Source: Ostreococcus lucimarinus
Lineage: Eukaryota
Assembly (NCBI GenBank): GCA_000092065.1
Contig: CP000594.1
Direction: 5' to 3' (one strand)
DNA length: 64,000 bases
Positions 1 to 41,300 of the stretch are shown here, in pieces (the stretch's first letter is position 1; every line of letters begins with the position of its first letter). The notes beneath the pieces are model-generated. The model saw only the letters and a list, made by a program, of their open reading frames with translations, made no database searches and had not been told where the DNA came from. A program made the position numbers and the translations under genes.

Positions 1-1067
1 CGAGAGAGCAAGCGCGCCAAAGAAATCACCATCGTCGGCGCCGTGTTCAAGTTCGCATTCGCCACGGCGGCGATGGGCGCCATCAGCCCTACGATCGTGT
101 CCGCGCTCACGCCTTCGCTGCCGTCATCGGCATCCATCGTGGGCGAATTTGCGAGCGCCAGAAGCGCTTCCGTGGCGTGTTGCGTGAGCAAAGGCTCATC
201 CAAATCCAATAATCCCGCGCACGCATCCGCGCACGCCCCGCACGCGGGTTCGGCGAGTTCGGGCAACAAAACCTTCATCGCGCCGAGCATGTACAGCGCC
301 TCCGTCGCCGCCGCCGTCGCGCGCGCGCGAGCATCTTTCGCACCCGCCGCACCTCGCGCCTTTTGCATCTCCGCCGCCGCGCGTTCGGGCGCCTCGCCAA
401 TCTTTCTCGCGAACGCCGCCGTCATCTCCCCGTACGCCGCCGCGCGCGCCGCGTCCCCACGCACCCTTCGCACGACGTCTCCCAGCGCGTGCACCGCCGC
501 CTTCCGCACCTTTGGCCTTCCATCGATCGACAGATTCAACGTCGCCTGAAACGCGCGCTTCCCGTGTTTCTCGCTCGTCTCTCCTCCCGACTCGCCCTTC
601 GTCGTCGCCGCCGCCGCCGCGCACGACGCCAACAATCTCGCCACGTGTCGCATGCTCTTCGGCGACCTCTCGCTCACCACTCGTCCGCATCCCATCACCA
701 CCTCGATCGTCCGCTCCATCTTCGCCCGTATCACGCGTCCATCGACGTCCGCCGCCGCCTCGGCCGCGCACGCGCACACCGCCTCGAGCGCCTCCAGCGC
801 GTCCTCGCTCCCGTCCGTCCCCGCCCGCGCGCTCGCCCGCTCCAGCGCCCCGAACGCCGCCGCGAACACCGACGTCGCGTTCACTCGCATGTCTCCCTCC
901 GCGATCGCGCGCTCGACCGCGTCGCACGCGCGCACGACGCGCGCCGAGCTCGCGCTCGCGCTTCGTCCGTGCGCGCGCCGCAACCGCTCGAGCGCGCCCT
1001 CGGGCGTCGCGCGCGCGTCGCGCGCGTCCGCGGTCGGGCGCGCGTCGTCGTCATCGCTCGACGCCAT
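1..1067 (-). CDS. Partial CDS (N-terminal ~355 aa; gene continues past window start): Ala/Leu-rich helical-repeat (ARM/HEAT-like) protein, begins MASSDDDDARPTADARD
   Basis: Manual minus-strand translation from the ATG at ~1067 runs without stops to position 1. Composition is protein-like (…ALGDVVRRVRGDAARAAAYGEMTAAFARKIGEAPERAAAEMQKARGAAG…EALYMLGAMKVLLPELAEP…TQHATEALLALANSPTMDADD…). It is absent from the ORF track, presumably because there is no stop inside the window. The listed ORFs over this interval (43..549, 196..927, 363..1250, 512..1429, 652..1320) are R/G/P/S-rich frame artefacts of 70% GC DNA. Confidence 0.4.
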   Translation of the reverse strand, partial: MASSDDDDARPTADARDARATPEGALERLRRAHGRSASASSARVVRACDAVERAIAEGDMRVNATSVFAAAFGALERASARAGTDGSEDALEALEAVCACAAEAAADVDGRVIRAKMERTIEVVMGCGRVVSERSPKSMRHVARLLASCAAAAATTKGESGGETSEKHGKRAFQATLNLSIDGRPKVRKAAVHALGDVVRRVRGDAARAAAYGEMTAAFARKIGEAPERAAAEMQKARGAAGAKDARARATAAATEALYMLGAMKVLLPELAEPACGACADACAGLLDLDEPLLTQHATEALLALANSPTMDADDGSEGVSADTIVGLMAPIAAVANANLNTAPTMVISLARLLS

Positions 1068-1371
1068 CGCGTCGAGCGCGTCGAGCGCGTCGAGCGTCGG
1101 CGCGCGCGCGAATGGCGTCGCGCGCGCGTGGCGGCGGATGGCGGCGATCGACGTCGCGCGCTCGATCCGACGCCGTTCGCGCGGCGCGCGCGGAGGGGCG
1201 CGCGCGAGCGTTTTTATCGGCGAGTCCGTCCGCGCGACGACGCGCGATGACTCGCGTCGCGTCCACGCGCGACGATTCATTCATTCGTGCATTCATTCAC
1301 GGTTCGCTGGCTACCGCTAACGCGCGCGCCGGCGCTGGCTATCGCCGATGCGCGCGACGACGCGCGCGCGA

Positions 1372-1614
1372 TCACGCGCCCTCGAGCGTCGCCGCGCGCG
1401 CCTCGCGCACGGCGCCCGCGAAGGCGTAGAACTGCGCGACGCTCATCTCCATCTGCTCGAACCAACGCCCGTCTCGCGCGTCGTCGTCGCTTCGCGCGTC
1501 GTCGTCCTCGAGCGTCAGCCTGACGACGACGCGCGAGACGCCGCTGGCGTTCGTCTCGCTCGTGCTCGCGGTCACGGCGAGGCGCCAGGCGAGATCGACG
1601 CACCGCGGCGGCAT
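1372..1614 (-). CDS. Small hypothetical protein (80 aa), ATG start confirmed
   Basis: ORF with a non-degenerate composition (…WFEQMEMSVAQFYAFAGAVREARAATLEGA). It may equally be an upstream exon or UTR of the neighbouring genes. Confidence 0.15.
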   Translation of the reverse strand: MPPRCVDLAWRLAVTASTSETNASGVSRVVVRLTLEDDDARSDDDARDGRWFEQMEMSVAQFYAFAGAVREARAATLEGA

Positions 1615-1646
1615 GGAGTGCGGCGCGCGCGGGACACCGCGACGCG

Positions 1647-2657
1647 ATGGCGAACCCGTTCGCGACGCTCGACGGCGACGCGCGCGGCGACGACGGGCGA
1701 GACGACGGCGAGAGTGGCGACGCGGCGCGCGGCGCGCGCGCGGCGACGGCGGCGACGCGCGCGAGACGGACGACGACGACGACGACGAGGGCGGCGAAGA
1801 AGCGCGAGACGGCGGCGCGGCGAGCCGAGGCGGAGGCGATGCGCGCGCGCGCGCACGCGGCGATGGCGATGGAAAAACGAGAGGACGATCGTTGGGGGAA
1901 GGTGGCGAAGGGATCGGGAATCGCGAGGAAGGCGGCGAAGGAGATGGCGAAGACGATGACGACGACGGCGGCGAGGGACGACGACGACGCGACTGGAGAG
2001 ACGACGACGGAGACGACGGAGACGACGGAGACGACGACGACGACGAGTGATGCGATGGCGAAGGTGAGTGAGGTGTTCTGGCACACGTTCGAGGACACGG
2101 GGGCGTCGTGTTGGTGCGTGCGAGTGGAGGACGAGGACGGCGAGTCGACGACGATGTCGATTACGAAATCCGTGCCTCGCGCGAGAAAAATTCCGAGCGA
2201 TGGGGGCGAACGACCGGTGTTGGTGAGCGGCGAGATTCGACTATTACTCGCTGAGTGGGACGATCGCACGCGCATCGATCGAGCGAGGCGCGCGAAGGCG
2301 AAATTGAAGGCGGCCAAGGCGGCGGCCAAGGCGGCCGCGGAGGCGGCCGAGGCGCCGGCCGAGGCGCCGGCCGAGGCGCCGGCGGTCGAGACATCGCCCG
2401 CGCCGGTGGCGGAGACGCTGTCCGCGGCACCGCCTGATTTCGGCGCGACGCGTAGAGCGCCGCCGCCCGGGTTCGAAAAACCTGCGTTTCGAGTCGTGCA
2501 CGTGCCGGTTGTCGATCCTGCTGTCGAGGCGAGGCAACGCGAGCTCGAGGCGCAAGTCGCGGCGTTGCAAGCGCAACTCGCCGCACAGCAGATGATGCAA
2601 CAGACGACGTACGCGCCACCGCCGCCAAGCTTTTCGGGAGGATCATCGATCTGGTAA
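1647..2657 (+). CDS. Hypothetical protein: acidic/Thr-rich N-terminus, conserved-looking core (VSEVFWHTFEDTGASCWCVRVEDEDGE…PVLVSGEIRLLLAEWDDR), Ala/Pro-rich repeats and a coiled-coil C-terminus
   Basis: ATG at 1647 confirmed. The TAA stop at 2655 is followed by an AT-rich 3' region. It is convergent with the PDZ gene. Overlapping minus ORFs 1277..2329 and 1572..2084 are R-rich artefacts. Confidence 0.35.
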   Translation: MANPFATLDGDARGDDGRDDGESGDAARGARAATAATRARRTTTTTTRAAKKRETAARRAEAEAMRARAHAAMAMEKREDDRWGKVAKGSGIARKAAKEMAKTMTTTAARDDDDATGETTTETTETTETTTTTSDAMAKVSEVFWHTFEDTGASCWCVRVEDEDGESTTMSITKSVPRARKIPSDGGERPVLVSGEIRLLLAEWDDRTRIDRARRAKAKLKAAKAAAKAAAEAAEAPAEAPAEAPAVETSPAPVAETLSAAPPDFGATRRAPPPGFEKPAFRVVHVPVVDPAVEARQRELEAQVAALQAQLAAQQMMQQTTYAPPPPSFSGGSSIW

Positions 2658-3185: not shown

Positions 3186-4387
3186 CTGCGTTCGAAAATA
3201 AGAAGCGAAAAAGTGAAAATGTCAGTCTTCGTCCGCTCGCTCGTTCATCGTCTCAGAGAGTATGGTCACAAAATATCCACATTGGGTATTCGGTAAAGTT
3301 TTTGGGTTAAAGGTTTTCATCTTCCTTGACGACGGCGCGATGAAGTCGAAGAAAAACGAACGTCGAGAACGACGACGACGACGACGGATGTAGCAGGGGT
3401 TCTAGAGGCCGTTAGTCATGGACAGACACGAAGCCCGCTTTACCCAAGCGTCACTCTACGGGCGTCTTCTGACGCGTCCGCGAATCTTTGAATCGCGGCG
3501 CGCACGTTCGAGATAAATCTCGCACCCAACATCGATCGAAAAGTAAAATGAATCCATTCAGCGGCGTGTCAGTGTTTCGTGAATCTTTTCACCGCGCCGA
3601 AACGCTCTAAAGGTGTCCTAAGATATATTGACGAAGTCATCACCCACACCGCCGAAACGGCGAGAAAAACCAAACAAACAAACCAACGATCGCGTCAGGA
3701 ATCAAAAATGATTTCGTTTCAAAGGAAGCCACTGAACACGGAGTCCTCAATTGAACTATGCCTTGATTCGAGCATCACCCGCGTCGTCGTCCGTCGTCTT
3801 CGTCGTCTTCGTCGTCGCTCGACGAGAGAAAAATCCACCCGCCGCTCGCGCGCGTTTCCAAGCCTCAGCTTAACGAGATTCACAAGTTTGATCGTCACCG
3901 AAATCAGATGGTACGGACAAGTGTGTCTCATCATCGGCTTCGCGCGCGCGACGGGCGGTCGCGCGTTTTCGTTTATCCGGCTAGCGTTCCGGCGTCGCGG
4001 GACCGGCCCGCGCGCCTCGCTCACGGTTCGCCGCGTCTCGCGCGTCGGCTCGCGCTCTCGCGCCCGTCCCGAGAGACGCGCGCTCGATCGCGTGCGTCAT
4101 CGCTCGACGGTGGTTTATCTCGGCGCGACCGAGCGCTGCGCGCGTCATGAGCGGGACGCGGCAGTGACTCTAGAGTGGATCGGCCTCTCGCGTTCTCGCG
4201 CGTCGCGTCGTCGTCGTCGTCGTCGTCGTCCTCGTCGCGTCGCGTCGCGTCGTCGCGCACCTCGTCGCGCGTCTCTCGCGCGCGCGTCTCGCGTTCGCGC
4301 GCGCTCGCGTCGCGCGGTGCGGTCGGGTCCGATTCGCCGCCGCCGCCGCACACCGCGACGCCGCGTCGACGCGCCGCGACGACGCGC

Positions 4388-5422: not shown

Positions 5423-5582
5423 TTAGATTGTGATATAACCAAACGACGACACGACGTTAAAGAACCGTAACAAACATCGCGAGTACATGTCGCGACCCGG
5501 GGCGACCACGACTTATGTTCCCTCGTATAGTTGCGTCTTCTCATAGTGATTTGAAGTCGTAAAGTATGAAAAAAGTTGGTGA

Positions 5583-5680
5583 TCAACAGGTCCGGAGTTC
5601 GATTCTCCGAGGCCCCTACGACAGACCCATACCTAGGGCACTCGGGGTCTTAGCTCAGTGGTAGAGCGGTTGACTGCAGT
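5583..5680 (+). tRNA. Permuted tRNA-Cys(GCA): 3' half (5583-5617: anticodon-stem 3' strand TCAAC, V-loop AGGTC, T-arm CGGAG/TTCGATT/CTCCG, acceptor 3' strand AGGCCCC + discriminator T), 26-nt linker, then 5' half (5644-5680: acceptor GGGGTCT, D-arm GCTC/AGTGGTA/GAGC, anticodon-stem 5' strand GTTGA, loop CTGCAGT)
   Basis: All stems pair canonically when the upstream 3' half is joined to the downstream 5' half (acceptor 7 bp with one G-U, D 4 bp, T 5 bp, anticodon stem GTTGA/TCAAC). There is no T-arm downstream of the 5' half and no 5' half upstream of the 3' half, so the halves are circularly permuted with the breakpoint in the anticodon loop after position ~37. Confidence 0.55.
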
Positions 5681-5810
5681 TAAAAACCATTTCTTTTTTG
5701 GACGTTTCTCGTCTCGACGCGTTTAGGGCACTCGGGGTCTTAGCTCAGTGGTAGAGCGGTTGACTGCAGTTAAAAACCATTTCTTTTTTGGACGTTTCTC
5801 GTCTCGACGC
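5631..5810 (+). repeat. 90-bp x2 tandem duplication containing a second, orphan copy of the tRNA-Cys 5' half (5734-5770)
   Basis: 5631-5720 and 5721-5810 are identical by eye. Confidence 0.8.
5693..5698 (+). terminator. Oligo-T (T6) run downstream of the tRNA 5' half, a candidate RNA polymerase III terminator
   Basis: tttttt lies 13 nt after the anticodon-loop breakpoint and repeats in the tandem copy at 5783-5788. Confidence 0.3.
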
Positions 5811-5909
5811 GTAACGCGATAGACGTGCGCGCGCCGACGTGTCTTCGTGATGTCTTCGTCTAAATCAGCACTTCACTTTTTATCACAATAGTTGACGACG
5901 ACGACGCGT

Positions 5910-7706
5910 CTATTTCTTCGCGACGACTTGCGCGAAGCTCACTTTGACCTTCTTCGCCGCCGCGGTCTCCGTCCCCGCGTGTAAATCATCGTTGAGCGAG
6001 TCCAATTGCGTGATTGAATCGTCTTCTTGCATTTCTTTGCGTTTGCGAGCCGCCTTCGTATCGTCTCCCAGGGGCAAAGGTTTCTCTTCGGAGATTTTCT
6101 TTTCCTCGTCCTCCGCGCTCGCCGCTTTCTTCTCCTTCTCCGGCGCGTAGATGTCCTTGACGTAGCCGTCGATTTCTTCTTTCACGAAGCTCGGTAAATC
6201 CTTGCGCTTCAAATATTTGACGTTCGCCTGCATCCCGGGTACCCAGTTCGATTCCCCAGTCGCGCGATCCATCCACGACGTCACAGTCATTTGGAACTGC
6301 TCCACCGCGGGATTCAAGTTGAGCGAAACCTTCTCCTCCTTCTTCTTCAGGCTCGAAGGAAATAACCCCAAGAACAGCGTGACGTGCGAGTTTTCGTCCT
6401 TCTCCGGATCTTTGTACCTCGACGTGCCGGGATGCGCAAGCATTTGCCCTCCCGTGGCGTTTTCGATGCCTTGGATTAAAAGCTTGATTCGCGAGCCGAC
6501 CCAACCTTCCCACTTCTTAAAGTCATCTTCGTTCTTGGCCGAGATGGTAACCATCAAATAATGCTTGTATTTTTCTAAAAAGTTCAACGAACACCACAGC
6601 TGCTCCCACTTCGCGGTGTTTAAAAGAATCATCTTGGTCACTTCCTTGCCGCGCTTGAACTCGGCTTTGAGCACCTCGAGCGTGCTGACGCTCACGTTGA
6701 ACGTAGAGTTTTGCGCCGGATACGCCGGAGTTAAGATTTTCATCAACTGATATCGCTCTGCCTTGTTCACACGCTCGTCCCACACTCGCATCCCGGGTAA
6801 GCCTTCGTCGACGATGGGTACGAGCATCACCGGCGTCGTCCATTGCCACGCCGACCATAGTTGGAAAAAGCTGTACACGAGCATGGAAGGTGCGGCGTTG
6901 GGGTACAACTGACACACGCGCGCTACTAAAATCGCCAGGTTTACGCCACCGAAAAACCCGACGACGTTGCTATACACCCCGCGCCGCTGCGCCCACAGAC
7001 GCAACGTGCGAAGCGCCACTCGAAACGCGTCGTGGTTTGGCACGACGCGCAACAACTGATCCGCCACGCGACAACCATTCAGGGATTTCACCCCTGGGTC
7101 GTCCAAATTCATCATCACCGACGTCTGACACACGTCTAAGTCCTCTGGCACGTGCGTGTACGACGGTAAGCTCGTGTACGCCATATCTATTTCAAAACCT
7201 CTAAACACGAGTTTGATTTCTGGCACGATGGCGTCGCGCACGGGCACGATGCTCTCCGTTCCAGGGTGTTTCCGCATCACGTCATAAAACGACCCTTCGT
7301 AATCATTCTCATCCCATCCAAAGAAATCCTCCTCTCGGCTCAGATGTCTCGGCCCGAGGCACAGCGTATCGATATCCGCAGCCGGTCCGTGCACGCCCAA
7401 TCTATAGCTCCCAAACGTGTACAAGTTACACGACGGCCGCATATCCTCTGTGATCCCCTTTCGCTCGCTCGCCGCCAGCACCCAGTCTTGCAACAACGCG
7501 TTTATCTCCCCCAGCACCTCCTCGCGTCGCACGCACTCGTCCGCGTCTTCGTACACGTCCTCTTCCCGCAGTTTGTCATCGAGCGCCTTGCTCAACTTTT
7601 CGTCGAACGCCGTCGGCATCTCGTTCGACATCACGCGATTCAGCGCCTCCGCGGACGCCGACTGGGTCATGACCGACGGTGCGGAGGGCGTCTGCGCGCC
7701 GATCAT
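5910..7706 (-). CDS. PAP: Nuclear poly(A) polymerase (canonical PAP)
   Basis: ATG confirmed. Nucleotidyltransferase motif LYTFGSYRLGVHGPAADIDTLCLGP. PAP central-domain motifs (VPEIKLVFRGFEIDMAYTSL, VNLAILVARVCQLYPNA). Lys/Glu-rich C-terminus with an NLS-like KKVKV. Confidence 0.85.
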   Translation of the reverse strand: MIGAQTPSAPSVMTQSASAEALNRVMSNEMPTAFDEKLSKALDDKLREEDVYEDADECVRREEVLGEINALLQDWVLAASERKGITEDMRPSCNLYTFGSYRLGVHGPAADIDTLCLGPRHLSREEDFFGWDENDYEGSFYDVMRKHPGTESIVPVRDAIVPEIKLVFRGFEIDMAYTSLPSYTHVPEDLDVCQTSVMMNLDDPGVKSLNGCRVADQLLRVVPNHDAFRVALRTLRLWAQRRGVYSNVVGFFGGVNLAILVARVCQLYPNAAPSMLVYSFFQLWSAWQWTTPVMLVPIVDEGLPGMRVWDERVNKAERYQLMKILTPAYPAQNSTFNVSVSTLEVLKAEFKRGKEVTKMILLNTAKWEQLWCSLNFLEKYKHYLMVTISAKNEDDFKKWEGWVGSRIKLLIQGIENATGGQMLAHPGTSRYKDPEKDENSHVTLFLGLFPSSLKKKEEKVSLNLNPAVEQFQMTVTSWMDRATGESNWVPGMQANVKYLKRKDLPSFVKEEIDGYVKDIYAPEKEKKAASAEDEEKKISEEKPLPLGDDTKAARKRKEMQEDDSITQLDSLNDDLHAGTETAAAKKVKVSFAQVVAKK

Positions 7707-7833: not shown

Positions 7834-8724
7834 ATGCTCGGGACTCAATCTCGCGGTCACGCCGCGGGCGATCGCAAGAGCGCGCTCGTGCGCTACGGAC
7901 TCGTGGCGATCGCGTTGATGAATGTCGGTGTCGAATTGATTAAGATGTACTTTGGAACGAGCGCGCGCGGCGTGGAGGGGCGATACGGACGCGTGCGCGC
8001 GGAGGTGGCGTCGGTAAATCATCGCACGTCGTCGCTCGAGCGGACGATGCCGCGCGCGGATGCGCTGGCGCCCGAGGTGGAGGAGACGCGGGCCGAAACG
8101 GCGGCGGCGACGGCGCTGGCGCCCGAGGTGGAGGAGACGACGACGCCGGCGAACGTTCGGCGGCGAGAGAGAGAGTGCGGTTCGCCCGCCGTCGATGGCT
8201 ACGCGCACGTAAATTTGACGTGCTTGGCGATGAGTGCGACGGCGAGAGAATTCGCTCACGCGTCGGCGAGCGGGCGCGAGAAGTTGCGAGCGCACATCGA
8301 AGAACACGCGTCGTACGACGGCGTGGCGGTTCGTTGGGGAATCCATCACACGACGGAAACCGCGGAGGAGTGCGGTGAGCGGTGCAAAGAACACGTGGTA
8401 AAGCCGGACGGAATCGGTGCAGAAGTTTTGCCGTGCAACGTGTTCGTTTGGTGTCCCAAAGACGTCGGTGAGGGCGGTTGCTTTGAACCAGACGCGCACC
8501 AGCACTTCGCGGGCGACTGTTGGCTCAAGTTTAGCGAGACTCCGGAGAACGTCGAGGTGAACCAGCGAGGGGCCAACGACGCACCTGGGTTCGTGAATAA
8601 GGATGGAAAGACGTTCGCCGAGCGACACGCGAACGCGCCGAAATTAGTCCATTGGTCGAGCGGCGTGCTGCTTCCGGAATCGATGACAGCTTCGAGCACG
8701 CTCGGGCCGCGCGCAACGTGGTAG
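7834..8724 (+). CDS. Hypothetical membrane-anchored/secreted Cys-rich protein
   Basis: ATG confirmed. Hydrophobic N-terminus (LVRYGLVAIALMNVGVELI) and a C-terminal half with 7 Cys. It is divergent from PAP with a 127-bp shared promoter region, and is the last gene before the GC drop. Confidence 0.35.
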   Translation: MLGTQSRGHAAGDRKSALVRYGLVAIALMNVGVELIKMYFGTSARGVEGRYGRVRAEVASVNHRTSSLERTMPRADALAPEVEETRAETAAATALAPEVEETTTPANVRRRERECGSPAVDGYAHVNLTCLAMSATAREFAHASASGREKLRAHIEEHASYDGVAVRWGIHHTTETAEECGERCKEHVVKPDGIGAEVLPCNVFVWCPKDVGEGGCFEPDAHQHFAGDCWLKFSETPENVEVNQRGANDAPGFVNKDGKTFAERHANAPKLVHWSSGVLLPESMTASSTLGPRATW

Positions 8725-8768
8725 ACATGTAGAAAATTTGTTGTTATACATATACTTGTACACTTTGA

Positions 8769-9389
8769 TTACTGTACGCGGGCCATCCAGTTTGCAGGCG
8801 GTGACCAGGTTGTCACCGCCGCATGGTGATCTCTCTGGTCTTTAGGTGGGCAAGGCCCCATAGCCAAAAACTTCAAAGAACTACTATATTCCAGCGTGTC
8901 CAGTGCTTCCACATTGCGAAGCTTTTCGTCATCTCTTTTTTCCACCAACACGCAGAATTCATTTACTTCCACTGCCCAGGCCTGGCCGGTGTTTCTTTCT
9001 ATTTTGTACATGCCGGCTCTGCATTGGAGGCCCATATTGAAAAGCTTAGCCTCGTTGACTTGCTAACAAACTTTCTCAAATGCCTCTACCATTTTCGGCG
9101 GTGTGCAACCCACCGGGAAGCGTATAGCAGACCAGCATCGGATCGTTTCACAAATGGGCCACCCCCCCATGTCCTTCAGTGCGCCGTTCAAGATATCTAC
9201 AAGCTCGATCGCCACGGGTGAGTTTCTCGACCAATCTGGGTCACGGGCACGCATGTAGAGAGGCGACGGCGCATGGGTTTTCAGCAGGGGGGCGATGCGC
9301 CAGGACGTGAAGTCGTGTTTCCCCTGAACTTGAAGAACTGCGAGCAGGTCGGGGTGATAGAATGCTGGGGTGCTCAGGCAACAACCCAT
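8769..9389 (-). pseudogene. MGCCLS… (N-myristoylation/palmitoylation-like start) hypothetical ORF interrupted by a single in-frame TAG at 9063-9065. Track ORFs 9063..9389 and 8769..9035 are the same frame.
   Basis: Both ORFs share a frame (start coordinates are both 2 mod 3). Only one stop and 9 codons separate them. Both halves have a non-degenerate composition. Confidence 0.3.
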
Positions 9390-9637: not shown

Positions 9638-9730
9638 ACCGTGGAATGGACTCGGAAAAACCTCTAGAAGTTCGGCGGCGCCATTCCGCGCGCGATCTCA
9701 GCGGGCGAGCGTGATCACCAACGTGGACCG

Positions 9731-11800
9731 ATGAGGCACCGATCGTACCGTGTATGCAATGGACGCACGCTCGCACTCATCGCGCTCGTCGTGCTTGTCG
9801 CACGCACGCAGCGCGTCTTCGCTTCGCCGACCGACGAGCGAAGATTCTGGACGCCCACTGTCGTCGCCGTGGACGACGGCGTCGGTTCGAAGATCCGACG
9901 CATGGGAAACGATGTGGAGAAATCGAAGTCTTTCGTGTTTGAGAACACGGTAGCGGAATCGCTGACAAGAGATGGCGTCGTCGCGGTGCGAGTGCGAGGC
10001 TTGAACGAAGCAAAGACACAGAGCGCAAAACTCTTCATGGATTGCGCGCGGGTTACGGATAATGTTGCAGTAGAAGAGTACGACGATGGATCCAGGCGCG
10101 TGACGCTCGCCACGACGACGAAGCAGAGGGGGAGTGGTTTCGGGGAACCCACGTCCAAAGCATGTAAGAAGTTCGAGGTCACGACGAAAATGCTTCGCGC
10201 GAAAGTTTCTGTGGCCGAACAAGCAATCACGGACGTGTTTCAGAGCAAGTTTTCAGATCTGAGTGAATTTGCGAACGGGGTACTGATGCAGGGAGAGAAC
10301 GGCGAGACCTATAAAACTTTCTCGGAAGTATTGAAAGACTGCGAGCACCTTGAACATTTTCACGGCTACACGATTTCACCACAACAAAAATTGAAGAATA
10401 GTAAAGTGCGGACGATCGAAGAGCACACGGATCAAGGTCTACTCATCGCATTCGTCCCGGCCATAATTGTCGATGCAGTGACGGGAAGGCGCGATAAGTT
10501 TTCCTCAACCGGCGATTTTTATATGACGCTTCCTGGGCATCGCAAGGTGCTTCTCCATTTTGACACGCTTCCAGACGATGTCGTTATTTTTATGCTGGGT
10601 CAAGCAATCGAGCAACAAATCACTCCCAAACTTGCAAACGGCCTTGAGCTTCACGCTGTACCACACGCAATGGATATGCCCAATCTTAAATCTAATCAGT
10701 TCAGATTTTGGTATGGGCGAATGTTCCTCCCACCTGAGAATGCCTTGGACGAAAGCCATGGTCTCTCTTTTGGGACAGTGCGCGCTAACATCATCGAAGA
10801 TTTCGCACGTGGGCTGAAGACATCCGTGGGATGTGGTCGTGAGCTCCTCTCCGTGGCAGGGAGCGGTTCATGCGCTAGCAACCAGATATGGTGCTGGATG
10901 CGATGCATGAATCACTCAGCGCCGGCGAGCAATCCACTCACATGCAGGACGGGTCATAGTGTCCAATGTTTGAGCCAAAGACTGGAAGTCTGGACGGATG
11001 CCGACAGTCATGGTGATTATAATCCTGGATGCACCGACGAGACCAACGAGACAAAGCCCGTCACCGATCCACCGACCATCCCAGCTCGAGCAGCCTCTTG
11101 TACAGATGGAAACGCCTGGGAAACTTTTTTGAACCACTCCGAATATGAAAACAGCTTGGAGCTGTTACAAGATAAGTTATATTTACTCTGGACTGTTCAA
11201 AATGGTAAGTTAAAAGCCCGAGTTGCCTTCAATGGCAAGATTGGTTGGTTTGCTCTCGGCATCAAAAACCTAGGAGGGAAACACAACGGGATGAACGGGG
11301 CGAACATCGTCATGGGCGTCCACGACCCTCATCCAATGGGTCACGACAGCAATTTCGGTTCTCCTTATGTTGGAAAGAGCAGTGCGAAACAATACAAAAT
11401 CCACGATCATTCTTCTGCTTTTCGACATTGGAATGACACTGCTGACGTTGCCTCACCCTTCGTGAGTTCGACGACGTTCAATTCATGTTTCAGTTGTATG
11501 CGTTTCGAGACGGCCTCGATACGGGGCGAGGCTCTGAATCTCACCTCTGGTATTAATGAACTCATCTGGGCTGCTCATGATGGCACTTACCTCAAAGGCT
11601 ACCATGAAGTACAAGGATTCGATCGGAGAGATGCACGCGGGCATCTCACGCTTGACCTGACGCGAAATTACGGTCGTGTAACGTGCGGCTTCTCAAGAGG
11701 CTGGGCTGCGGCGAGTCAAACATGTGCTTTTTCGGCAGCAAGCACTCCTTCAGCGATAGTTTCTATATCCATTGCTGTCATTGCAATCCTCGTTATGTGA
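9731..11800 (+). CDS. Secreted/membrane-anchored protein with an N-terminal 2OG-Fe(II)-oxygenase-like domain (HTD…H) and a C-terminal DOMON-like domain, plus a hydrophobic C-terminal tail (GPI/TM-like)
   Basis: ATG confirmed, followed by a signal peptide (LALIALVVLVARTQRVFA). HxD…H: EEHTDQGLLIAFVP … KVLLHFDT. DOMON-like: GKIGWFALGIKNLGG…MNGANIVMG…SAFRHW…ELIWAAHDG. C-terminus IVSISIAVIAILVM. Confidence 0.45.
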   Translation: MRHRSYRVCNGRTLALIALVVLVARTQRVFASPTDERRFWTPTVVAVDDGVGSKIRRMGNDVEKSKSFVFENTVAESLTRDGVVAVRVRGLNEAKTQSAKLFMDCARVTDNVAVEEYDDGSRRVTLATTTKQRGSGFGEPTSKACKKFEVTTKMLRAKVSVAEQAITDVFQSKFSDLSEFANGVLMQGENGETYKTFSEVLKDCEHLEHFHGYTISPQQKLKNSKVRTIEEHTDQGLLIAFVPAIIVDAVTGRRDKFSSTGDFYMTLPGHRKVLLHFDTLPDDVVIFMLGQAIEQQITPKLANGLELHAVPHAMDMPNLKSNQFRFWYGRMFLPPENALDESHGLSFGTVRANIIEDFARGLKTSVGCGRELLSVAGSGSCASNQIWCWMRCMNHSAPASNPLTCRTGHSVQCLSQRLEVWTDADSHGDYNPGCTDETNETKPVTDPPTIPARAASCTDGNAWETFLNHSEYENSLELLQDKLYLLWTVQNGKLKARVAFNGKIGWFALGIKNLGGKHNGMNGANIVMGVHDPHPMGHDSNFGSPYVGKSSAKQYKIHDHSSAFRHWNDTADVASPFVSSTTFNSCFSCMRFETASIRGEALNLTSGINELIWAAHDGTYLKGYHEVQGFDRRDARGHLTLDLTRNYGRVTCGFSRGWAAASQTCAFSAASTPSAIVSISIAVIAILVM

Positions 11801-12051
11801 CGCGGAAGTTTGCATTCTTCACGATCTTTCAATCGACACCCGAAACAGTCTGAGCACGCACCGACAGTCACGCCGTTGTAGGTCCCGGCGTGATAACAGA
11901 ACTCTTCGCTTGATGCGAGTGCGTTCGTGCTCGCGTACGCACTCGAAACGGTGCAGTCGGCGTGAGAGAAACACACGTCGCCCGGGTCCGCGCGCGCGGT
12001 GTGCGCGACGGCGAGAGCGAAAACGAACGGCACGAGGAGGTTCTGAAACAT
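11716..12051 (-). CDS. Small secreted Cys-rich protein (111 aa, 8 Cys)
   Basis: The track ORF starts at a TTG (12108). The first ATG at 12051 gives a signal peptide (MFQNLLVPFVFALAVAHTARA). Its 3' end overlaps the convergent 9731..11800 gene by 85 nt, which lowers confidence. Confidence 0.25.
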   Translation of the reverse strand: MFQNLLVPFVFALAVAHTARADPGDVCFSHADCTVSSAYASTNALASSEEFCYHAGTYNGVTVGACSDCFGCRLKDREECKLPRHITRIAMTAMDIETIAEGVLAAEKAHV

Positions 12052-12119
12052 TTTTGGTGTGGGTTTAGCTCGCGAAAAAGTTTCAGCGAGGCTTGACGTG
12101 CGCCGCAAAGTGAGGTTCG

Positions 12120-12310
12120 GAGATCCGGAGATCCGCCGGTTGACGCCCCGCGGGGCGTGTGTGCCAGCCCGTAGGGTTTAGGGGATCGGACATATGGAGC
12201 CTCACTATTAAGACACACTGTCATATATATTAATGGATTTATGACAGTGTGTCTTAATAGTGAGGCTCCATATGTCCGACCGCGGGCACACATCCCCGCG
12301 GGGCGCCAGC
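12120..12310. repeat. ~190-bp foldback: perfect 37-bp arms (ggacatatggagcctcactattaagacacactgtcat / rc) around an 18-nt AT loop. Arms are extended imperfectly by cgccccgcgggg(c/a)gtgtgtgcc, and the left arm contains tagggtttagggg.
   Basis: Read directly. A related end-sequence (ggcgccccgcgggtgtgtgtgtcagccc … gtcggacatatggagcctcaca) recurs at 29290-29410. Confidence 0.75.
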
Positions 12311-24100: not shown

Positions 24101-26946
24101 GTAGAAACGACGGCATTGGGTTTCCCGCGTTTTACTTAACGGCAGAACCGTACCGGCCGGATCAAGGAGTGAAAACGCCATCGCGCTTTGGTGGAACGAC
24201 GCTAAGAAACATAAGGTTTCGCGATTTCGGCGCATGTGAAAAGAAAGGCGTTCGTCAAGTTCGTCAAAAGAATTACGCATTGGTGAACGCCATGAACCGT
24301 GGGCGATACGCGTGGGTTTACTACGACAACGCGAACCCCGTGCGATCTTCTGGCTTGAGCTTTAAGGGTGTACCATTCGAAAACAGGTTACTCATGATCC
24401 ATCCAAGCTGGGGTCGAATAGGCAATGGGAAATGGGGCTGTGCCCAAATGTACTGCGACGGACATCGCAACACGTTTGTGATGGATGAGGACGGTTCGCT
24501 GCTCGGTGATAACGCCGCATTCGGGACCATCTTGCCCGAAAACGAGATTGGTTGGTTCAAGAAACTGGCCTATATCGATCCGCTCAGCCGTGACATTCTT
24601 GAAGATTTGGTTCCATTCACACACCAGTGGCTGCCCAACGGTACCAAACTGACGCCCATGCGAGGGAAGCTCTACGACGAGCCAGGCCATCTCAAAATGG
24701 GCTGTCGAAAGGAGGCTTCATGGCAGGCGTGGCTCTGTCCCGAACACAGGCACAGGCAAATAATCCACGAAAGTTTGGACGGCGATCACACGAAGAGGCG
24801 CATCTCCCCAACTTCTGTTCTCACAGAGCTACCATCTCAGAGCAAGCGTTTCATGTCTCTGTACACTGGGCCTGCGAAATACGGAGGAAACTGGGCAGGT
24901 AAAATAACCAGACATAACACACTCTGGATTACCGGCCATGTCGGCGCGACGCACACGATCCACCACTCGAGCACGAATCCATCCATTTCGCGCGTAACAT
25001 TTGCCGATGCCACGGAGGATGAGGCCGTGCATGTCAAGCTTTATTACGGCGTACCAAATCGTGTCGACGTTTACGTCGATGGAAGGTACGTCCCACCGCT
25101 TGCGAACATCACTTGGGATCAGCCGGACGTTCCTGATATCAGTAGCTCGGGCAGTCTTGAGACTATGCCACACGGCGCGAACTTTTACAATCGTCTGAAC
25201 GGTTATCTCGAATTCGTGCTGAGAGGCCCTAAAGAAGTGCAAATTCGCGTCTCGAACATCGTCGTACTCAGCGCTACCGTCACAGTCACCGAGGACACAT
25301 TCTTCGTGCCGGGAATAAAAGCACTGGTGAACAACATTCGTCTCTTGCTTAACATTCCGGAGGAACGAATCGCAGTCGCGGGAGTTGGCGATTTCAAGCT
25401 AGCGAAACAAATCGCAAAAACTGAAGCATCCTCCCTTGGGTCATCTGGAGACAGTACTGAGCACGTCATCGAATTGCTCATAGAGGAGGCAACTACAACA
25501 CAGCTCAGTTCGAGCGAGGAAGACGTCGAAGACGTAGATCCGGTCGCAGAGGCAAACGCGTACTCGAACTCTAGTTCTGAGCTTACTTCGCTGGCTCGGC
25601 GTGTGCAGCAAAACGCTAAAAATTTGACGTTGGGAACTGCTCTGGGGTTGGCAAATTCAACATTACCAGTTGAAAAGTCACCTATTGACATGGTGGCGGG
25701 CTGGACGTGTGAAACCAGAATGTATAACGATGGCACTTGCGATTGTGATTGTGGCGCGTGGGATCCTGATTGTGACGGTGGGCAGACTATCTTGCGAGGC
25801 TGCCCATCGCACGCGGAGATCAACAGCACCGGTACCCCATTTGAATTCGCAAATAGTGTACGGGCATACTGCGTTAACAATTCAGACGTCGTGACGTGTA
25901 GTTTAGCAGTGCCTCCTGATGACCTCTGCAACGAGTGGCCATGCCTGGATAGTGATCCGTCTGATGTTCTCGTCTCTTACTTACAACGGGCCTCTAGTAA
26001 TGAGTTAAAATGCGTCAAGCGGCAGAGTTCGCCACATGCAATGCATACGGGAGAGTGTGCTTTAAGCATGTTGGACGAGCGTGGCGACACCCTTGAACCG
26101 ATTCTGAGCTGGAACTCCACAGATTTGCCTGCTTCACCACAACCACAAACGTCATCTTCGGTACCGTCTTCACCGCGTCCGGATGTCCCCGCACCAGTAC
26201 CGTCTTCATCGCGTCCGGATGTACCCGCACCAGTACCGTCTTCGCTGCGTCCAGATGTACCCGCACCGGTACCGTCTTCGCCGCGTCCGGATGTACCCGC
26301 ACCGGTACCGTCTTCGCCGCGTCCGGATGTACCCGCACCGGTACCGTCTTCGCCGCGTCCGGATGCTCCGCATCGAGGCCCCTCACGAGAGTCAGCACAA
26401 GCGCGACGAGACCGCCGTCGTGACGACCGCGCGCGTCAAAGACGAAGCATTAGAAGGCTTCAAAGACAAATCGCTAGAAGATTTTCTGTCTCACAGGAAG
26501 ACTTGAGAAATGCGACAACATTGAGCTCGATTGTTGAGCTTGCGCAGGCTGAGGTGCAAGAAGCCCAACGCTCCGTACCAACACTACAGACGAAATATGA
26601 GTCGGCGAAGGCTCTGTACAAAGGGAACAGAACTACTACAAATAAAGCGGCGCGCCGCCAGGCAAAGATAAATTTGCGCGTTGGAAGAAAACAACTGAGG
26701 CGCGCGAACAAGAAGCTTGAATTACTTGAAGAACTCAGCAGGGCACTCACCACACCGGAACAAGGCGGCGCTTTTGCCCTTGGTATCGGTAACCCACGCG
26801 GACGAGAAAATTCGATGCTCGTCGTCGCTGTCGCGATGGGCGCGTGCGCCATGGCCTCCCTCGCCGTGCGATCTCACCGCAGAGCGAACAAACGACTTTA
26901 CGTGGATGAATCCACGGCACTCTTGAGGAATCGTAGGCGTTTTTGA
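15112..26946 (+). CDS. Giant (~3,944 aa) intron-less type-I membrane protein with a fibrocystin/PKHD1L1/CEMIP/TMEM2-like architecture. It has an N-terminal signal-anchor, two G8 domains, parallel beta-helix (PbH1) repeats, (PSSPRPDVPAPV)x6 Pro-rich repeats, a basic coiled-coil, a C-terminal TM and a short tail.
   Basis: The track ORF starts at TTG 15070 and the first ATG is at 15112 (MTSATPKRRRARRFLYAFGGPTLLFNL…). G8-1: WGPRGVPDQNSTDMLFIPAGFNLTLDVADTYFRVWVIEGHLNFQRG…IVINGDDAHFSIGSETRPFEDQANIIMHG (DNA ~19.58 kb). G8-2: WSPPAFGDDVMIKAGWTVILDETCLVTNITRHVDLYGSLLLRD…VRIELYG (DNA ~22.39 kb). Beta-helix: NNVAYNILGHGMFVEDGVEMWNLFKDNVV. TM MLVVAVAMGACAMASLAV near the C-terminus. The ORF is uninterrupted for 11.9 kb. 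Confidence 0.7.
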   Translation: MTSATPKRRRARRFLYAFGGPTLLFNLMRVFAMSGLVATITMSTAAGAAHGGGASMDEGPAQMHYMPDRFRSLAGGGWLTISSRDVHKSLMPMPGMRGGGEGANESAVSGSAMKDEVKIDLAHGDPDGERSCDLVHYKSSSNELVCSPRAVDCCLDGLTAQELASVSDGCPSVRPELNVEVNGQRLTWGSAGRNGRDTLTDESLKVSHGQTPTIVAVEPAEVRPGELITVYGRTCFGDVWKKDEDDGSSLRDDPDALRDLFSVEASAREDPRQEIGLEKSLYKVLIGDLPCEVRDPLTNRYYRSERGDGPYTAHRQTECGPVNGWFQCRVPQDIDSGLHLLHYETYTRGNAVILSEALRWNASDASKGYVLSVVDDKSEDEDPPRVYNITQLSKDESKQRLLVEGASLDAPNIVVELDGERCGGKKVVSRSGIEVECSGSAGASSQYHYGPPAWLREDWVFKDKNNKFVGGKAWSNALHVLKQRGERYNPLADEVMDALSSALATNGIVRGYKIEKVQQYLTSPSVGSPYVEATSGMKAAHAGLIRHRRIRNAVFERVSGVITAKANGRMRVAIANAAGNNMVLRVRHVSDNLNVFKPWLLVSKFCGTRYSRQNIYRYGFSQWFSVRGNEKYYMEFLMNLDPRYLHNFGGFDVKMEFSYDAGNPAGSIGQLTHTTTPHVPKRAHGGDYVVRFSGASKTAIRFAHNATSSRSNFEWKLFSGGKTIEFNTKNWLHAREHVRKVRDALRWANCTALPEDSKMWDADSTHSSHPFDVENRWLMVRDTQTFKEPTTDWNFIWQRRMGGFRGASIDWSTSYCSTHSQKFDLSSLPPGRVITPSSHFDVPASSRATTNKFLNFAYKVTPGTRATLLLRLKYRSGNRDISTTCAVLLTHEQATGNVKNFDHPACVDLRSVFKDDGEWHFISFDWRTALAGGEYAPSYLGEAMFPHKVQVQLDGIGVGAQRFLGKCPNKQRLAEMYVGDEGSELRGYLWLDSVSVTQERYSPQRVETPSAQLGGMQEGVHAITDIEYSVISRSDGSKCKSLSDCDIIVSLRQVKRCIDAQSRGDFNISPMVMSQTSPNPQPATVSCGRHYAANCSTCPWKVSAEGVRGRWMGWKYCNGACEWRWHGRINAGGTCVSKPAPTPPAITVTDRTSSTRGTVTAQITGGTMTQFSTSANSSEVQDALRHVLGAHDGGFVVSPSMDLFDACGVSAHRMRVAHASDLESIQARYKEVVNGVPLGMLPKSSRGRTAENDAGLLNITVNVSGGLAEIVATDESSDFIGMVPLDTRTDLDVRALIRGGDAVLATAVVTDGDTVVPCSVSPDRMSATGFKQVPNGQAFVGDASCHIIVPHEEVASDATVHAPTELNQDGFPSLGESVSQSSPTDQKRRRDVETIRRRSMSNSLKFPGHDTWAKRDLSMSRSDLGRLTVTVVGFGARVHNGAAHRRAANHARKLLKTELVAKDAGQGSLNNTKSKYEFPAGAGRFSDPSTWGPRGVPDQNSTDMLFIPAGFNLTLDVADTYFRVWVIEGHLNFQRGMNITMQAEMIVINGDDAHFSIGSETRPFEDQANIIMHGHWRSLGLPKYGVKCISLTSGRLTFYGQHVTPWMELATTASANANVISVRSKEGKTPDLAGWKPGASIVVTSTSYGDRRCRQNRTDDCQPEERVIESVTPRGNFADITLDRPLKYEHLGESVNVAGSPRGATIERRAEVMLLTRNINVRGTTEHNGYKLVGFGAHTMMMSGQMVLKNVEFGPNVGQAFQLGRYAIHYHTPNEKMFKYGLTASNDPRMQGADQRLSRVEGVSVHQSNNRAIAVHGCYRLNIINNVAYNILGHGMFVEDGVEMWNLFKDNVVSLVHRSFSLLNTDQTPAAFWISNANNFFIGNRVSSSNHHGYWFDPPGGPTGPSSRTLTGPLEIQKLSTRKVPLGQFENNRAHSNGHSGLWIDQINTVLQQGGRLRMYMVGTHVWNNGINGFGMITGVGHLQIVNTFAMGNGIDIMYIKSTGATWAMPTNGWSGNLVYNATLRGDPKRNTQAIGCPHGGWVTFNDILISGYQSRLPPIHHCAVCPGFKGGMEVRFMNMKFVDSDTRRLRGGSTSRPRVFWNGYNSNLLLDVDGTLSGSPGPRWAHSVKGASDDPRNRPTGHFPPEHCTLNDHIGGVVCDANTVSLREVQWRRIKPMTLIPMAMQTAPDQNAGQVNFYHYDHIERRFNWRTTLVMVKSPNAKPYIHNFTFKFKTWQIDDPDAWYMEVRELQPNEWAIMRFPTLRNPWRWNLNSRIPTVTLNNYNQSDYSFNESKAITTTSNEWLSWKNHKFGDHTYLPVVETRDVNVKPDPGLLDIMISGKREQGWTQSYALGANYDGAREDMPVCTTSCGSSAKSTCGMKRYNCRPGDKKRCLPMEKPANCFDNRPIPEVDPEPKTFSWCDSNEVWSPPAFGDDVMIKAGWTVILDETCLVTNITRHVDLYGSLLLRDPGAGKTIKFRAQTIHVAAGIGYLEAGDQDDPISNGDVRIELYGNRFSNARMGYGMETKYIAVLGHLSLVGKASVEQTWSTLRSDAPAGSSTIETTACGGWNTGDTLMIGGAMHNWTGIKHAWFLSAERCDISSIAVASEGCVIRCTSSFNYTHSGPAQKHEVSFGGMPVTLMHRRSPGGRVQVVGMEDKNKALAEQHYGAVITILKPKKKGYDAKLAKRFKIELKTPERMQAATESMKHDPPPECHRRQGSAVIVNVNFAHCGQRHSSRACVSFAAGIGAEYRATFAETTSMALVANNTFADAYNFAVSAAGDGIIIENNAIAQTYHGGFEVSGANNTMSNNAAVRLFDDVSDYFHDIGSVGFKLSGSGKWYTNVVASVQYTGFKIPGYPCEMMTPDVEDEGLDVRAVTTVPAEPTMRDLRAYGGMVGVNLRGGRTRMVTREPVEAYAPLECRQWSDFEIRSMVWYGVTTFGQGKTSIVLKNFNIWDTGLGFALWMVNGGSAAGSSSERGHFAEISDTTIIGSASRCRNDGIGFPAFYLTAEPYRPDQGVKTPSRFGGTTLRNIRFRDFGACEKKGVRQVRQKNYALVNAMNRGRYAWVYYDNANPVRSSGLSFKGVPFENRLLMIHPSWGRIGNGKWGCAQMYCDGHRNTFVMDEDGSLLGDNAAFGTILPENEIGWFKKLAYIDPLSRDILEDLVPFTHQWLPNGTKLTPMRGKLYDEPGHLKMGCRKEASWQAWLCPEHRHRQIIHESLDGDHTKRRISPTSVLTELPSQSKRFMSLYTGPAKYGGNWAGKITRHNTLWITGHVGATHTIHHSSTNPSISRVTFADATEDEAVHVKLYYGVPNRVDVYVDGRYVPPLANITWDQPDVPDISSSGSLETMPHGANFYNRLNGYLEFVLRGPKEVQIRVSNIVVLSATVTVTEDTFFVPGIKALVNNIRLLLNIPEERIAVAGVGDFKLAKQIAKTEASSLGSSGDSTEHVIELLIEEATTTQLSSSEEDVEDVDPVAEANAYSNSSSELTSLARRVQQNAKNLTLGTALGLANSTLPVEKSPIDMVAGWTCETRMYNDGTCDCDCGAWDPDCDGGQTILRGCPSHAEINSTGTPFEFANSVRAYCVNNSDVVTCSLAVPPDDLCNEWPCLDSDPSDVLVSYLQRASSNELKCVKRQSSPHAMHTGECALSMLDERGDTLEPILSWNSTDLPASPQPQTSSSVPSSPRPDVPAPVPSSSRPDVPAPVPSSLRPDVPAPVPSSPRPDVPAPVPSSPRPDVPAPVPSSPRPDAPHRGPSRESAQARRDRRRDDRARQRRSIRRLQRQIARRFSVSQEDLRNATTLSSIVELAQAEVQEAQRSVPTLQTKYESAKALYKGNRTTTNKAARRQAKINLRVGRKQLRRANKKLELLEELSRALTTPEQGGAFALGIGNPRGRENSMLVVAVAMGACAMASLAVRSHRRANKRLYVDESTALLRNRRRF
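26150..26350 (+). repeat. 60-bp x ~3.5 near-perfect tandem coding repeat (PSSPRPDVPAPV units) inside the G8 giant gene
   Basis: Repeated gtaccgtcttcgccgcgtccggatgtacccgcaccg… units read directly. Antisense ORFs 26015..26398 and 26183..26506 are repeat artefacts. Confidence 0.8.
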
Positions 26947-38366: not shown

Positions 38367-41300
38367 ATGCTCTTTGCTACGGCCACGTGGATGCTGCTAT
38401 TGCTCACGTCGTTTGTCGATGGGGCAATAGTAGACCGCGACGCTTTGAAAGTTGCAGTGGACAACTGTTTGGCGGCAAATGCCACTGGTAACTGCGATTG
38501 TAGCAGTGACTCTGTGGACTGCGGTACCGCTGGAAGTCTTCCCATCTCGCAGTGGGATACGAGCCGCGTGAACGATATGAATAGACTATTCAGCAACCAG
38601 GGTTCATTTAACGCGAATATCTCCGCGTGGGACGTGAGCGGCGTGACGGACATGACTCGAATGTTCGAGGGCGCTAATAGTTTCGCTCAGGACATCAGCT
38701 CGTGGAACGTGGTGAACGTCACGAGCATGGACACTATGTTCTATCGCGCGGATGCGTTCAACGCGCCCATCGGCAGTTGGAACACAGACGGCGTGACAAA
38801 CATGTTTCAGATGTTCCACTCAGCACATTTGTTCGATCAACCGATCGGAAGCTGGAACACGGAACGGGTGACGACCATGCAGTGTATGTTCATGTATGCG
38901 CGTGAATTCAATCAGGATATCAGCTCCTGGAACACGGCCAACGTGGTAAATATGTGGGATATGTTTTATAGTGCGGATGCGTTCAACCAGAACATTGGGT
39001 CATGGAACACAGAGGAGGTGACGGATATGAGGTACATGTTTTATAGTGCGGATGCGTTCAACCAGAACATTGGGTCATGGAACACAGAGAAGGTGACGGA
39101 TCTGAGCGGAATGTTTCAGGGCGCAGCGGCGTTCAACCAGGACATTGGCTCATGGAACACAGAGGAGGTGACAGACATGAGCGGAATGTTTCAGGGCGCA
39201 GCGGCGTTCAACCAGGACATTGGTTCATGGACGACGACGTCGGTGAAGAACATGGAGAGCATGTTCGAGGATGCGACGGCGTTCAACCAGAACATTAGCT
39301 CCTGGAACGTCAGTGCCGTCACAGACTTCGATCGGATGTTCTACACAGCGACCGCCTTCAACAAAGGCATAATCACCACGAAAACGACATGGACTGGCGC
39401 CACCGGCGCGTCCGCGACAGACATGTTCTCCGCCGCCACGGCGTGGCTGCAGAGGTATGAGTACACGACGAATCCCAGCGGAAGCGTCGTGAATGGTCCC
39501 GCGTCGGCTTGGAGTGTGAAGAAGTGTTCGTCCAATCAGTACGTTTTGAGCAACACATGCAAGGCGTGTGCCTCTGGCAAATTTCGCAGTGCTGGTGACG
39601 ACCCTGATGGCTCCAATACGGCGTGTACGTACGCGTCGCCGTTTGCTTCAAATACCCAGCTGAAAGACACGATCGAGTCTTCGTACTGCTTGGGAGGCAG
39701 CGACGCCACGGGCGCGAATTGCACGGACGGCAAGGGTATGTATATAGCGCAGTGGGATACGAGCTTGATCACGGATATGAATCACTTGTTCTACAACAAA
39801 ATTTCATTCGACGCCAATATCAGCACGTGGAACACGGCGAAAGTGACAAAAATGGATAGCATGTTTTCTCAAGCACGTGCATTTAACCAGAGGATTAATG
39901 AATGGAATACATCGAGCGTGGTGACAATGGAAGCTATGTTCCGCTACGCCGAGTCCTTTGACCAGCCCATTGGTGAGTGGAATACCGGAAGAGTCACCAA
40001 TATGAAAGACATGTTTTCGCAGGCGTCTGAATTCAATCAGAATATCGGTAATTGGGATACATCGAGTGTGACGACGATGGATACTATGTTTCGCTACACC
40101 GAGTCCTTTAACCAGCCCATTAGTGAGTGGAATACCGGAAGAGTCACCAATATGAAAGACATGTTTTCGCATGCGTACGCATTCAATCATTCAATCGGTG
40201 ACTGGAACACGGGTGCCGTGGAGAATATGGAGCTTATGTTCCAAAATACCGGCGTTTTCAACCAGGACATCAGCAGTTGGAACACGGCGGCGGTGACTCA
40301 GATGGACTCAATGTTTTACGGTGCTTCAGCCTTCAATTATGACATCACTGGTTGGAGTTCAGCAAGCCTTACGTCGTCGACGGACATGTTTCTCTCCGCG
40401 ACGGCTTGGCTGGCGAGGTACAAGAACACCGCCTCCCCAGGTAGCAAAAATGGGCCATCGTCGAACTGGCTCGGTCCCGGTCCGTTCACGACCAAGTCGG
40501 CGTTGGAGACCGCTACATGGAACTGCTTGGCGGGGAGCGCCGATGCCGATGGCAACTGCGACTGTACGACCGTCGATTGTGGCGCGGCGGTGTATGAATC
40601 GATTTCGAACTGGAACACGAGTTTGATCACGGACATGACCGGTTTGTTTGAAGGTAAGTCTTCATTCAACGCGAATATCGGCGGATGGAACACGGGGAGC
40701 GTCACAAACATGCACCAGATGTTTAACGGCGCGACTGCTTTCAACCAAGACATCGGTTCTTGGGATGTCTCGGATGTAGCGGACATGTATCAAATGTTCG
40801 GTAGCGCGTCCTCGTTCAATCAAAACATTGGGTCGTGGAACACAGGCAGTGTGACGGATATGAGCGGTATGTTCATGAATGCATCTGCGTTTAACCAGCC
40901 CGTTGGTGACTGGAACACAGGCAGCGTCGTGGATATGAGCGGCATGTTTGAGAGCGTGTCTGCGTTTAACCAGCCCATTGGTGAGTGGAATACCGGAAGA
41001 GTCACCAATATGAAAGAAATGTTTTCGCAGGCGTCTGAATTCAATCAGAATATCGGTAATTGGGATACATCGAGTGTGACGACGATGGATACTATGTTTC
41101 GCTACACCGAGTCCTTTAACCAGCCCATTAGTGAGTGGAATACCGGAAGAGTCACCAATATGAAAGACATGTTTTCGCATGCGTACGCATTCAATCATTC
41201 AATCGGTGACTGGAACACGGGTGCCGTGGAGAATATGGAGCTTATGTTCCAAAATACCGGCGTTTTCAACCAGGACATCAGCAGTTGGAACACGGCGGCG

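Follow-up and report, generated by a model that had tools for sequence, protein, structure and literature searches.

[quoted passage not shown] Both questions are raised by a short segment of DNA from the marine green alga Ostreococcus lucimarinus, examined here within a window of 64 kb (the whole stretch that was analysed). In permuted tRNA genes of this kind, the tRNA is stored back to front and is recovered through a circular RNA. The initial annotation placed a circularly permuted tRNA-Cys(GCA) gene at 5583-5810 and noted such genes in the red alga Cyanidioschyzon, in the nuclear genomes of Mamiellophyceae and in nucleomorphs; these taxa are correctly named.

The permuted gene and the additional 5' half are both already known. 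In Table 1 of a review (Soma 2014, PMC3978253), the O. lucimarinus Cys(GCA) gene appears as type II (37/38), free of introns and with 26 nt of intervening sequence. The same review, whose table sets out the permuted tRNA genes reported by Maruyama et al. 2010 (Mol Biol Evol 27:1070), states that an extra 5' half is present downstream. Organism, anticodon, junction, spacer and extra half all agree, so the published O. lucimarinus Cys(GCA) gene (Maruyama, Sugahara, Kanai, Nozaki 2010) is the one in the window. The neighbouring open reading frame for poly(A) polymerase (PAP; 5910-7706, minus strand) is identical to XP_001421431/XP_001421465 of O. lucimarinus CCE9901. Our overall reading, which we hold to be highly probable, is that the locus is a nuclear circularly permuted tRNA-Cys(GCA) gene of type II, with a 37/38 junction, and that the extra 5' half arose by a recent duplication peculiar to the reference strain and is most likely inert.

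Anatomy of the permuted gene

The features of the locus are collected in Table 1. The 3' half opens with A38 at 5582 and continues as TCAAC-AGGTC-CGGAG-TTCGATT-CTCCG-AGGCCCC (5583-5616, plus strand), that is, the 3' strand of the anticodon stem, the variable loop AGGTC, the T arm CGGAG-TTCGATT-CTCCG and the 3' strand of the acceptor stem, AGGCCCC. It closes with the discriminator T at 5617. No CCA is encoded, the three bases after U73 being ACG. The 5' half, GGGGTCT-TA-GCTC-AGTGGTA-GAGC-G-GTTGA-CTGCAG, supplies in turn the 5' strand of the acceptor stem, the D arm, the 5' strand of the anticodon stem and CTGCAG, within which the anticodon GCA is found. The annotated coordinates were nearly right; the 3' half begins at A38 (5582), and the repeat that follows ends at 5812.

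Table 1. Features of the tRNA-Cys(GCA) locus, in window coordinates
Feature	Position	Strand	Basis or remark
GTATAG, TATA-like element	5525..5530	+	About 52 nt 5' of the 3' half; possible Pol III promoter element
Precursor leader, ...GAAAAAAGTTGGTG	5560..5581	+	Sequence reading
tRNA-Cys 3' half, A38 to U73	5582..5617	+	Sequence and ARAGORN on the joined halves
Intervening sequence (spacer), 26 nt, tRNA 3' end to 5' end	5618..5643	+	
tRNA-Cys 5' half, G1 to G37	5644..5679	+	Sequence and ARAGORN on the joined halves
Trailer TTAAAAACCA then TTTCTTTTTT	5680..5699	+	TTTCTTTTTT at 5690-5699; run of six T at 5694-5699
Tandem duplication, 2 x 90 bp	5634..5812	+	Tandem Repeats Finder, 2.0 copies, 100% identity
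Orphan second 5' half	5734..5769	+	Identical to 5644-5679; own T-run 5780-5789

When the two halves are joined in silico, ARAGORN calls a 72-nt tRNA-Cys(GCA) with a canonical cloverleaf, in which 7 of 7 acceptor pairs (one of them G.U), 4 of 4 D pairs, 5 of 5 anticodon pairs and 5 of 5 T pairs are formed. The two main claims of the initial annotation, a 3' half placed 26 nt 5' of its 5' half and four stems that pair only in the permuted arrangement, hold on this evidence; the joined molecule is fully paired, and the unrearranged window yields no tRNA by ARAGORN, with introns allowed or not, the outcome to be expected of a permuted gene. The discriminator U73 is the main identity element of tRNA-Cys for cysteinyl-tRNA synthetase. 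Given an artificial ‘intron’, ARAGORN also returned a Ser(GCT) call, with the intron wrongly placed. This was rejected on three counts: a long variable arm is lacking, U73 stands at the discriminator position, and joining 37 directly to 38 yields Cys(GCA).

The window was also scanned for the permuted topology itself, defined as a T arm and an acceptor 3' strand followed within 100 nt by a complementary acceptor 5' strand and a D arm. On the 64 kb, read on either strand, 16 loose candidates emerged; ARAGORN confirmed a single one of them (5610/5644), and none in five shuffled windows. The permuted gene is far above chance expectation. TTCGATT also occurs at 6247, within the coding sequence of PAP, but no stems pair around it and the match is due to chance.

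Downstream of the 5' half, TTTCTTTTTT presumably ends transcription of the functional unit by Pol III, the function of T-stretches in permuted tRNA genes being described in the review (Soma 2014, PMC3978253).

Conservation across Ostreococcus and the predicted route to the mature tRNA

The exact PAP protein is encoded on many marine metagenome contigs. Ten of these were fetched, and the tRNA locus is present on nine of them, about 99% identical to the window. Homologues of PAP with 71-80% identity led to three other Ostreococcus lineages, in which PAP, the permuted tRNA-Cys and RRS1 are syntenic; in one lineage (L015) the tRNA gene is inverted relative to PAP. Scanning the metagenome collection with the 29-nt stretch that extends from the D arm to the anticodon brought in 25 more loci, each with one match and each in the permuted arrangement. 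The permuted gene is thereby found at 40 related loci from 8 lineages, and the 29-nt stretch is identical in all 40. Viral contigs were scanned for the 5' half with no match, so there is no sign among them of a prasinovirus copy.

Conservation follows the tRNA rather than the DNA around it. The segment from the D arm through G37 is invariant over the 8 lineages, as is U73, whereas leader, trailer and spacer are unrelated in sequence between lineages and the spacer varies from 26 to 58 nt. By inspection, a T run of at least four follows the 5' half in every lineage whose contig extends far enough, and AT-rich or TATA-like stretches lie upstream at variable distance. For some green-algal permuted tRNA genes, only an ambiguous AT-rich region is reported upstream (Soma 2014, PMC3978253).

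Five distinct sequences of the mature tRNA-Cys are found. They differ in the stems only, and each difference is compensatory. The changed pairs are 3:70 and 4:69 in the acceptor stem, which pairs across the two halves, and three in the T stem. All cells of the alignment of these five sequences (100%) are paired and 5 of the 21 pairs change on both sides, a result reached by none of 500 shuffles; controls in which the pairing was slid are 36-53% paired. Such covariation is strong comparative evidence that the two halves function together as one tRNA. The permuted Cys genes of O. tauri (38-nt spacer) and Micromonas pusilla (12-nt spacer) share the isoacceptor and the type II junction with the gene in the window (Soma 2014, PMC3978253). 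The order of the halves, the cloverleaf, the junction motif, the T-stretch with no encoded CCA and the signs of compensatory selection are all those of a type II (37/38) green-algal permuted gene.

The junction can be read from the ends of the precursor. G5579, at position -3, pairs with C32, and T5580-G5581-A5582 form a 3-nt bulge that contains the 3' cleavage site. This anticodon-intron pair, C32:G(-3), shows no variation in any lineage. In the window helix H is weak, with three of four pairs (C-G, U.G and G.U) and one mismatch; elsewhere it has 1 to 4 pairs. The mature loop, CUGCAGA, could be joined at 36/37 or at 37/38 with an identical product, because a G stands on both sides. Judged by sequence, the leader-trailer motif is a relaxed hBH, the form that the review assigns to green algae. 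The strict hBHBh' form is absent, in agreement with what the review says of green algae. That form and a leader-trailer h' helix were sought across the lineages; neither is conserved, nor is a second bulge, and the conserved parts of the motif are the anticodon-stem-proximal bulge and C32:G(-3) only. The relaxed hBH with its anticodon-intron pair is the form needed by standard eukaryotic splicing endonucleases (Soma 2014, PMC3978253). Just upstream of the bulge the leader is polymorphic in the wild (AAAAAAG, AAAAAG, ACCAAG, AATACG). In minimum free energy the precursor gains nothing over shuffled sequences (z = -0.55). This is usual for tRNA, whose folding energy is generally no better than that of shuffles, and the result speaks neither for nor against the gene.

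The pathway that we infer for O. lucimarinus tRNA-Cys is drawn from the literature on this class of gene and is consistent with the anatomy described above. RNA polymerase III would start 5' of the 3' half, read from leader to trailer and stop at the run of six T. In the precursor the halves would already fold into the core of the cloverleaf, with leader and trailer meeting at the open anticodon loop as the hBH, the key element of which would be the pairing of C32 with the G three nucleotides before the 3' cleavage site. The tRNA splicing endonuclease would then cut after G37 and before A38, and a ligase would join G37 to A38 to give a circular intermediate. The 26-nt spacer would be removed from this circle by RNase P and tRNase Z, after which CCA would be added.

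In the permuted genes of Cyanidioschyzon merolae (Soma et al. 2007, Science 318:450), the 3' half comes first, as here, and an AT-rich or TATA-like element upstream is matched by a T-stretch downstream, again as here. The circular intermediate made there by splicing endonuclease and ligase, with processing of the ends to follow, is the route proposed by analogy for O. lucimarinus. The C. merolae genes differ in that their junctions are at 20/21, 37/38, 50/51 or 59/60, their BHB forms vary and additional introns are frequent, whereas the green-algal permuted genes, O. lucimarinus Cys among them, are nearly all 37/38 with a relaxed hBH suited to the standard eukaryotic endonuclease. The split tRNAs of Nanoarchaeum equitans and Caldivirga are likewise joined at a BHB-type motif by splicing endonuclease, but their halves are separate transcripts of distant genes, whereas here a single transcript carries both in reversed order.

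The additional 5' half and the alternative readings

The initial annotation also described a 90-bp tandem duplication that leaves a second 5' half without a partner, and Tandem Repeats Finder agrees. Each 90-bp unit runs from the final 10 nt of the spacer through the 5' half, its trailer and the T-run into 24 nt of unrelated DNA downstream. The orphan 5' half sits 3' of the first terminator, TTTCTTTTTT, which is a strong one, and no T-arm-like element or 3' half was found downstream of it. If the unit is phased one base earlier, the sole difference between the copies is C5633 against T5723, and single-copy alleles have T at this position.

In the metagenomes the 5' half is single. This is so in all 15 O. 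lucimarinus-type contigs (about 99% identical to the window) and at 25 further loci, and it holds for every other lineage; the metagenomic Ostreococcus lineages differ from the window in spacer, leader and trailer, and none has the duplicated 5' half. A 32-mer spanning the duplication junction has no match in the metagenome contigs. The duplication is seen in one reference assembly, and short-read metagenome assemblers can collapse tandem repeats. Some of the assemblies are named k127 and k141, however, and a k of 127-141 exceeds the 90-bp unit and would resolve it, so collapse is unlikely to explain the absence from those contigs. The duplication is most simply read as very recent and private to the reference strain, an assembly artefact being the less likely account. 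Most probably the second 5' half has no activity and reflects instability at the locus.

Could the whole arrangement be debris, whether a chance match, a tRNA-fragment pseudogene or another RNA such as YrlA? The raw window does lack a tRNA by ARAGORN, and the only permissive Rfam match at the locus is to YrlA (RF02553), aligned over 5565-5699. Its 32.8 bits fall far under the gathering score of 69 for that family. YrlA is a bacterial family acting with Ro60-like proteins. In the model's consensus a T arm precedes an acceptor-like helix and then a D arm, the permuted order of the window, and the match arises because this order is shared; it is a topological echo rather than a sign of membership, and as such it independently confirms the permuted topology. 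Unlike YrlA, the sequence in the window has an anticodon stem, the GCA anticodon and U73, and it becomes an ordinary tRNA once rearranged. Debris would not be expected to show stem substitutions that are all compensatory over 8 lineages, nor an invariant U73, an invariant segment from the D arm through G37 and an invariant C32:G(-3). The shuffled controls contain no confirmed candidate, and some green-algal permuted tRNA genes are expressed, as detected by northern blotting or RT-PCR (Soma 2014, PMC3978253). The covariation effectively refutes this reading, to which we attach next to no probability.

The other alternatives concern the extra 5' half alone. [quoted passage not shown] A surviving intermediate is nevertheless highly improbable. 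Over 179 bp the two copies match at 100%, with trailer, terminator and the 24 nt of flank included, and the second is not followed by a 3' half, whole or decayed. Other Ostreococcus lineages and the 15 conspecific contigs also have the permuted gene at this locus with only one 5' half, from which it follows that the permutation is old and the duplication young. As the permuted arrangement is common to all sampled Ostreococcus lineages, the extra half is not a relic of the origin of the gene. Another suspicion, that the real locus has one 5' half and the 90-bp duplication arose in assembling or cloning the reference genome, draws on the presence of the duplication in the window only, on its absence (junction included) from every metagenome contig and on the derivation of all published mentions from the same assembly. 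We consider it unlikely. No other haplotype shares the T arm and leader of the window; the window therefore represents a separate strain allele, which could have variants of its own, and a perfect head-to-tail duplication of 90 bp is presumably atypical as an artefact of a finished capillary-read assembly, which we take this genome to be. A function for the second 5' half, either through read-through and pairing with the 3' half across a 116-nt spacer or as a stand-alone tRNA-half RNA, is very unlikely. The copy is intact, with its own trailer and T-run, and a read-through transcript could form the same leader-trailer motif and acceptor pairing; but the copy lies behind TTTCTTTTTT, has neither an upstream TATA-like element of its own nor a downstream B box, and is missing from all wild haplotypes, which shows it not to be under conservation. 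The preferred reading stays that of a recent, strain-private duplication with a second 5' half that is probably inert.

Variation and surroundings of the locus

Several observations on the locus in the wild stand apart from the argument above. Three T-arm alleles exist among haplotypes that are about 99% identical, namely CGGAG-TTCGATT-CTCCG in the window (5593-5609), CCGCG-TTCGATT-CGCGG and CCGAG-TTCAATT-CTCGG; the window was compared with the contigs L001/L010 and L030/L031/L036/L039. The CGGAG/CTCCG allele of the window was found in no other contig, and most other Ostreococcus lineages have CCGAG-TTCAATT-CTCGG too. The alleles differ by compensatory pairs plus R57. They place five variable sites inside 15 nt of a functional RNA; flanking coding DNA has 0-2 per 100 bp. 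Over the 2.6 kb that was aligned, 25 of about 37 variable sites fall within 5500-5840, an excess that is partly expected because this stretch is mostly intergenic.

Larger changes are also found. Four contigs from two projects (ENA and JGI) carry a 53-nt insertion in the 3' half, between TCAAC and AGGTC (window 5587/5588); these are L004, L005, L008 and L009, in which the locus is on the minus strand at about 9720-9775. The insertion contains three CCCTAAA units, which we take to be the plant-type telomere repeat, and two inverted copies of leader segments. It looks like telomerase-assisted repair of a break inside the tRNA gene. On folding the L004-type allele, no BHB-type splice motif was recognisable for the insertion; the fold has a 7-bp hairpin adjoining the anticodon stem and a competing pairing with the leader. 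A second insertion, of about 405 bp (TGATCTGCTGCCCCTCAACC...GGCAAAGGCCCTTTCGTCA), lies at window position 5835, 22 bp 3' of the tRNA repeat, in four contigs (L001 at 11873-12290, L002, L006 and L003), and apparently duplicated a short target, CGTCG. What follows the element in L003 is another neighbourhood, with a ZIP transporter gene and others and without the tRNA, which points to a repeated or mobile element as the agent of rearrangement.

A truncated second copy of the locus is present in another Ostreococcus lineage (L018), about 5.4 kb from the intact gene. In coordinates of the reverse complement of L018, 2805-3280 aligns with 8200-8785 in two blocks, 98% and 93% identical. The 5' half of the copy breaks off behind the D arm (GGGTTCTTAGCTCAGTGGTAGAGCG) and 23 nt stand in place of about 115 nt, so this is a pseudogene copy. 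This partial duplicate differs from that in the window, so partial copies arise repeatedly.

It is possible, though to us doubtful, that the permuted tRNA-Cys locus is a site of recurrent breakage and repair in wild Ostreococcus populations. This reading draws on the three T arms, the 90-bp duplication and the insertions of about 405 bp and 53 nt among haplotypes about 99% identical, and on the truncated paralogue of the other lineage. If tRNA-Cys were single-copy, the allele with the 53-nt insertion would have to be rescued by an undescribed processing route or complemented by a second source of tRNA-Cys.

The rest of the window has its own irregularities. A block of about 37 kb (9618-46897) is inverted relative to all conspecific metagenome contigs, which join 46897 to 9617. 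The block and its surroundings have a lower GC content (about 50-55%) and many internal direct and inverted repeats; inverted pairs include 33900-35095/49363-50558 at 97% and 12437-12975/46488-47019 at 90%. The PAP of CCE9901 has two NCBI accessions, the XP_001421431 and XP_001421465 mentioned above, which are 34 numbers apart and suggest that the gene is duplicated in the reference assembly; L003 may be the second PAP context. The lower-GC part of the window also contains several long tandem arrays (39827-42353, 56569-57659 and 26159-26365), whose units of about 75-150 bp and about 1 kb are 80-99% identical; some of the arrays are within very large open reading frames. For the matching metagenome contigs, the gene callers give a DUF285 protein longer than 2,600 aa. 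The first 2000 nt of the window (1-2000) have 72% GC, the remainder 50-62%. At gathering thresholds, the only Rfam match in the window is snoR117 (RF01423), a plant-type C/D-box snoRNA at 3860-3939 on the minus strand (43.4 bits, gathering score 42).

The gene and its extra 5' half were described in 2010, and finding them again adds nothing of substance. What is added to the published record is that the extra 5' half appears to be young and specific to the strain, and it should not serve as evidence for a model in which permuted genes originate through such an intermediate stage. Permuted tRNA genes bear on the evolution of tRNA genes and of their introns.
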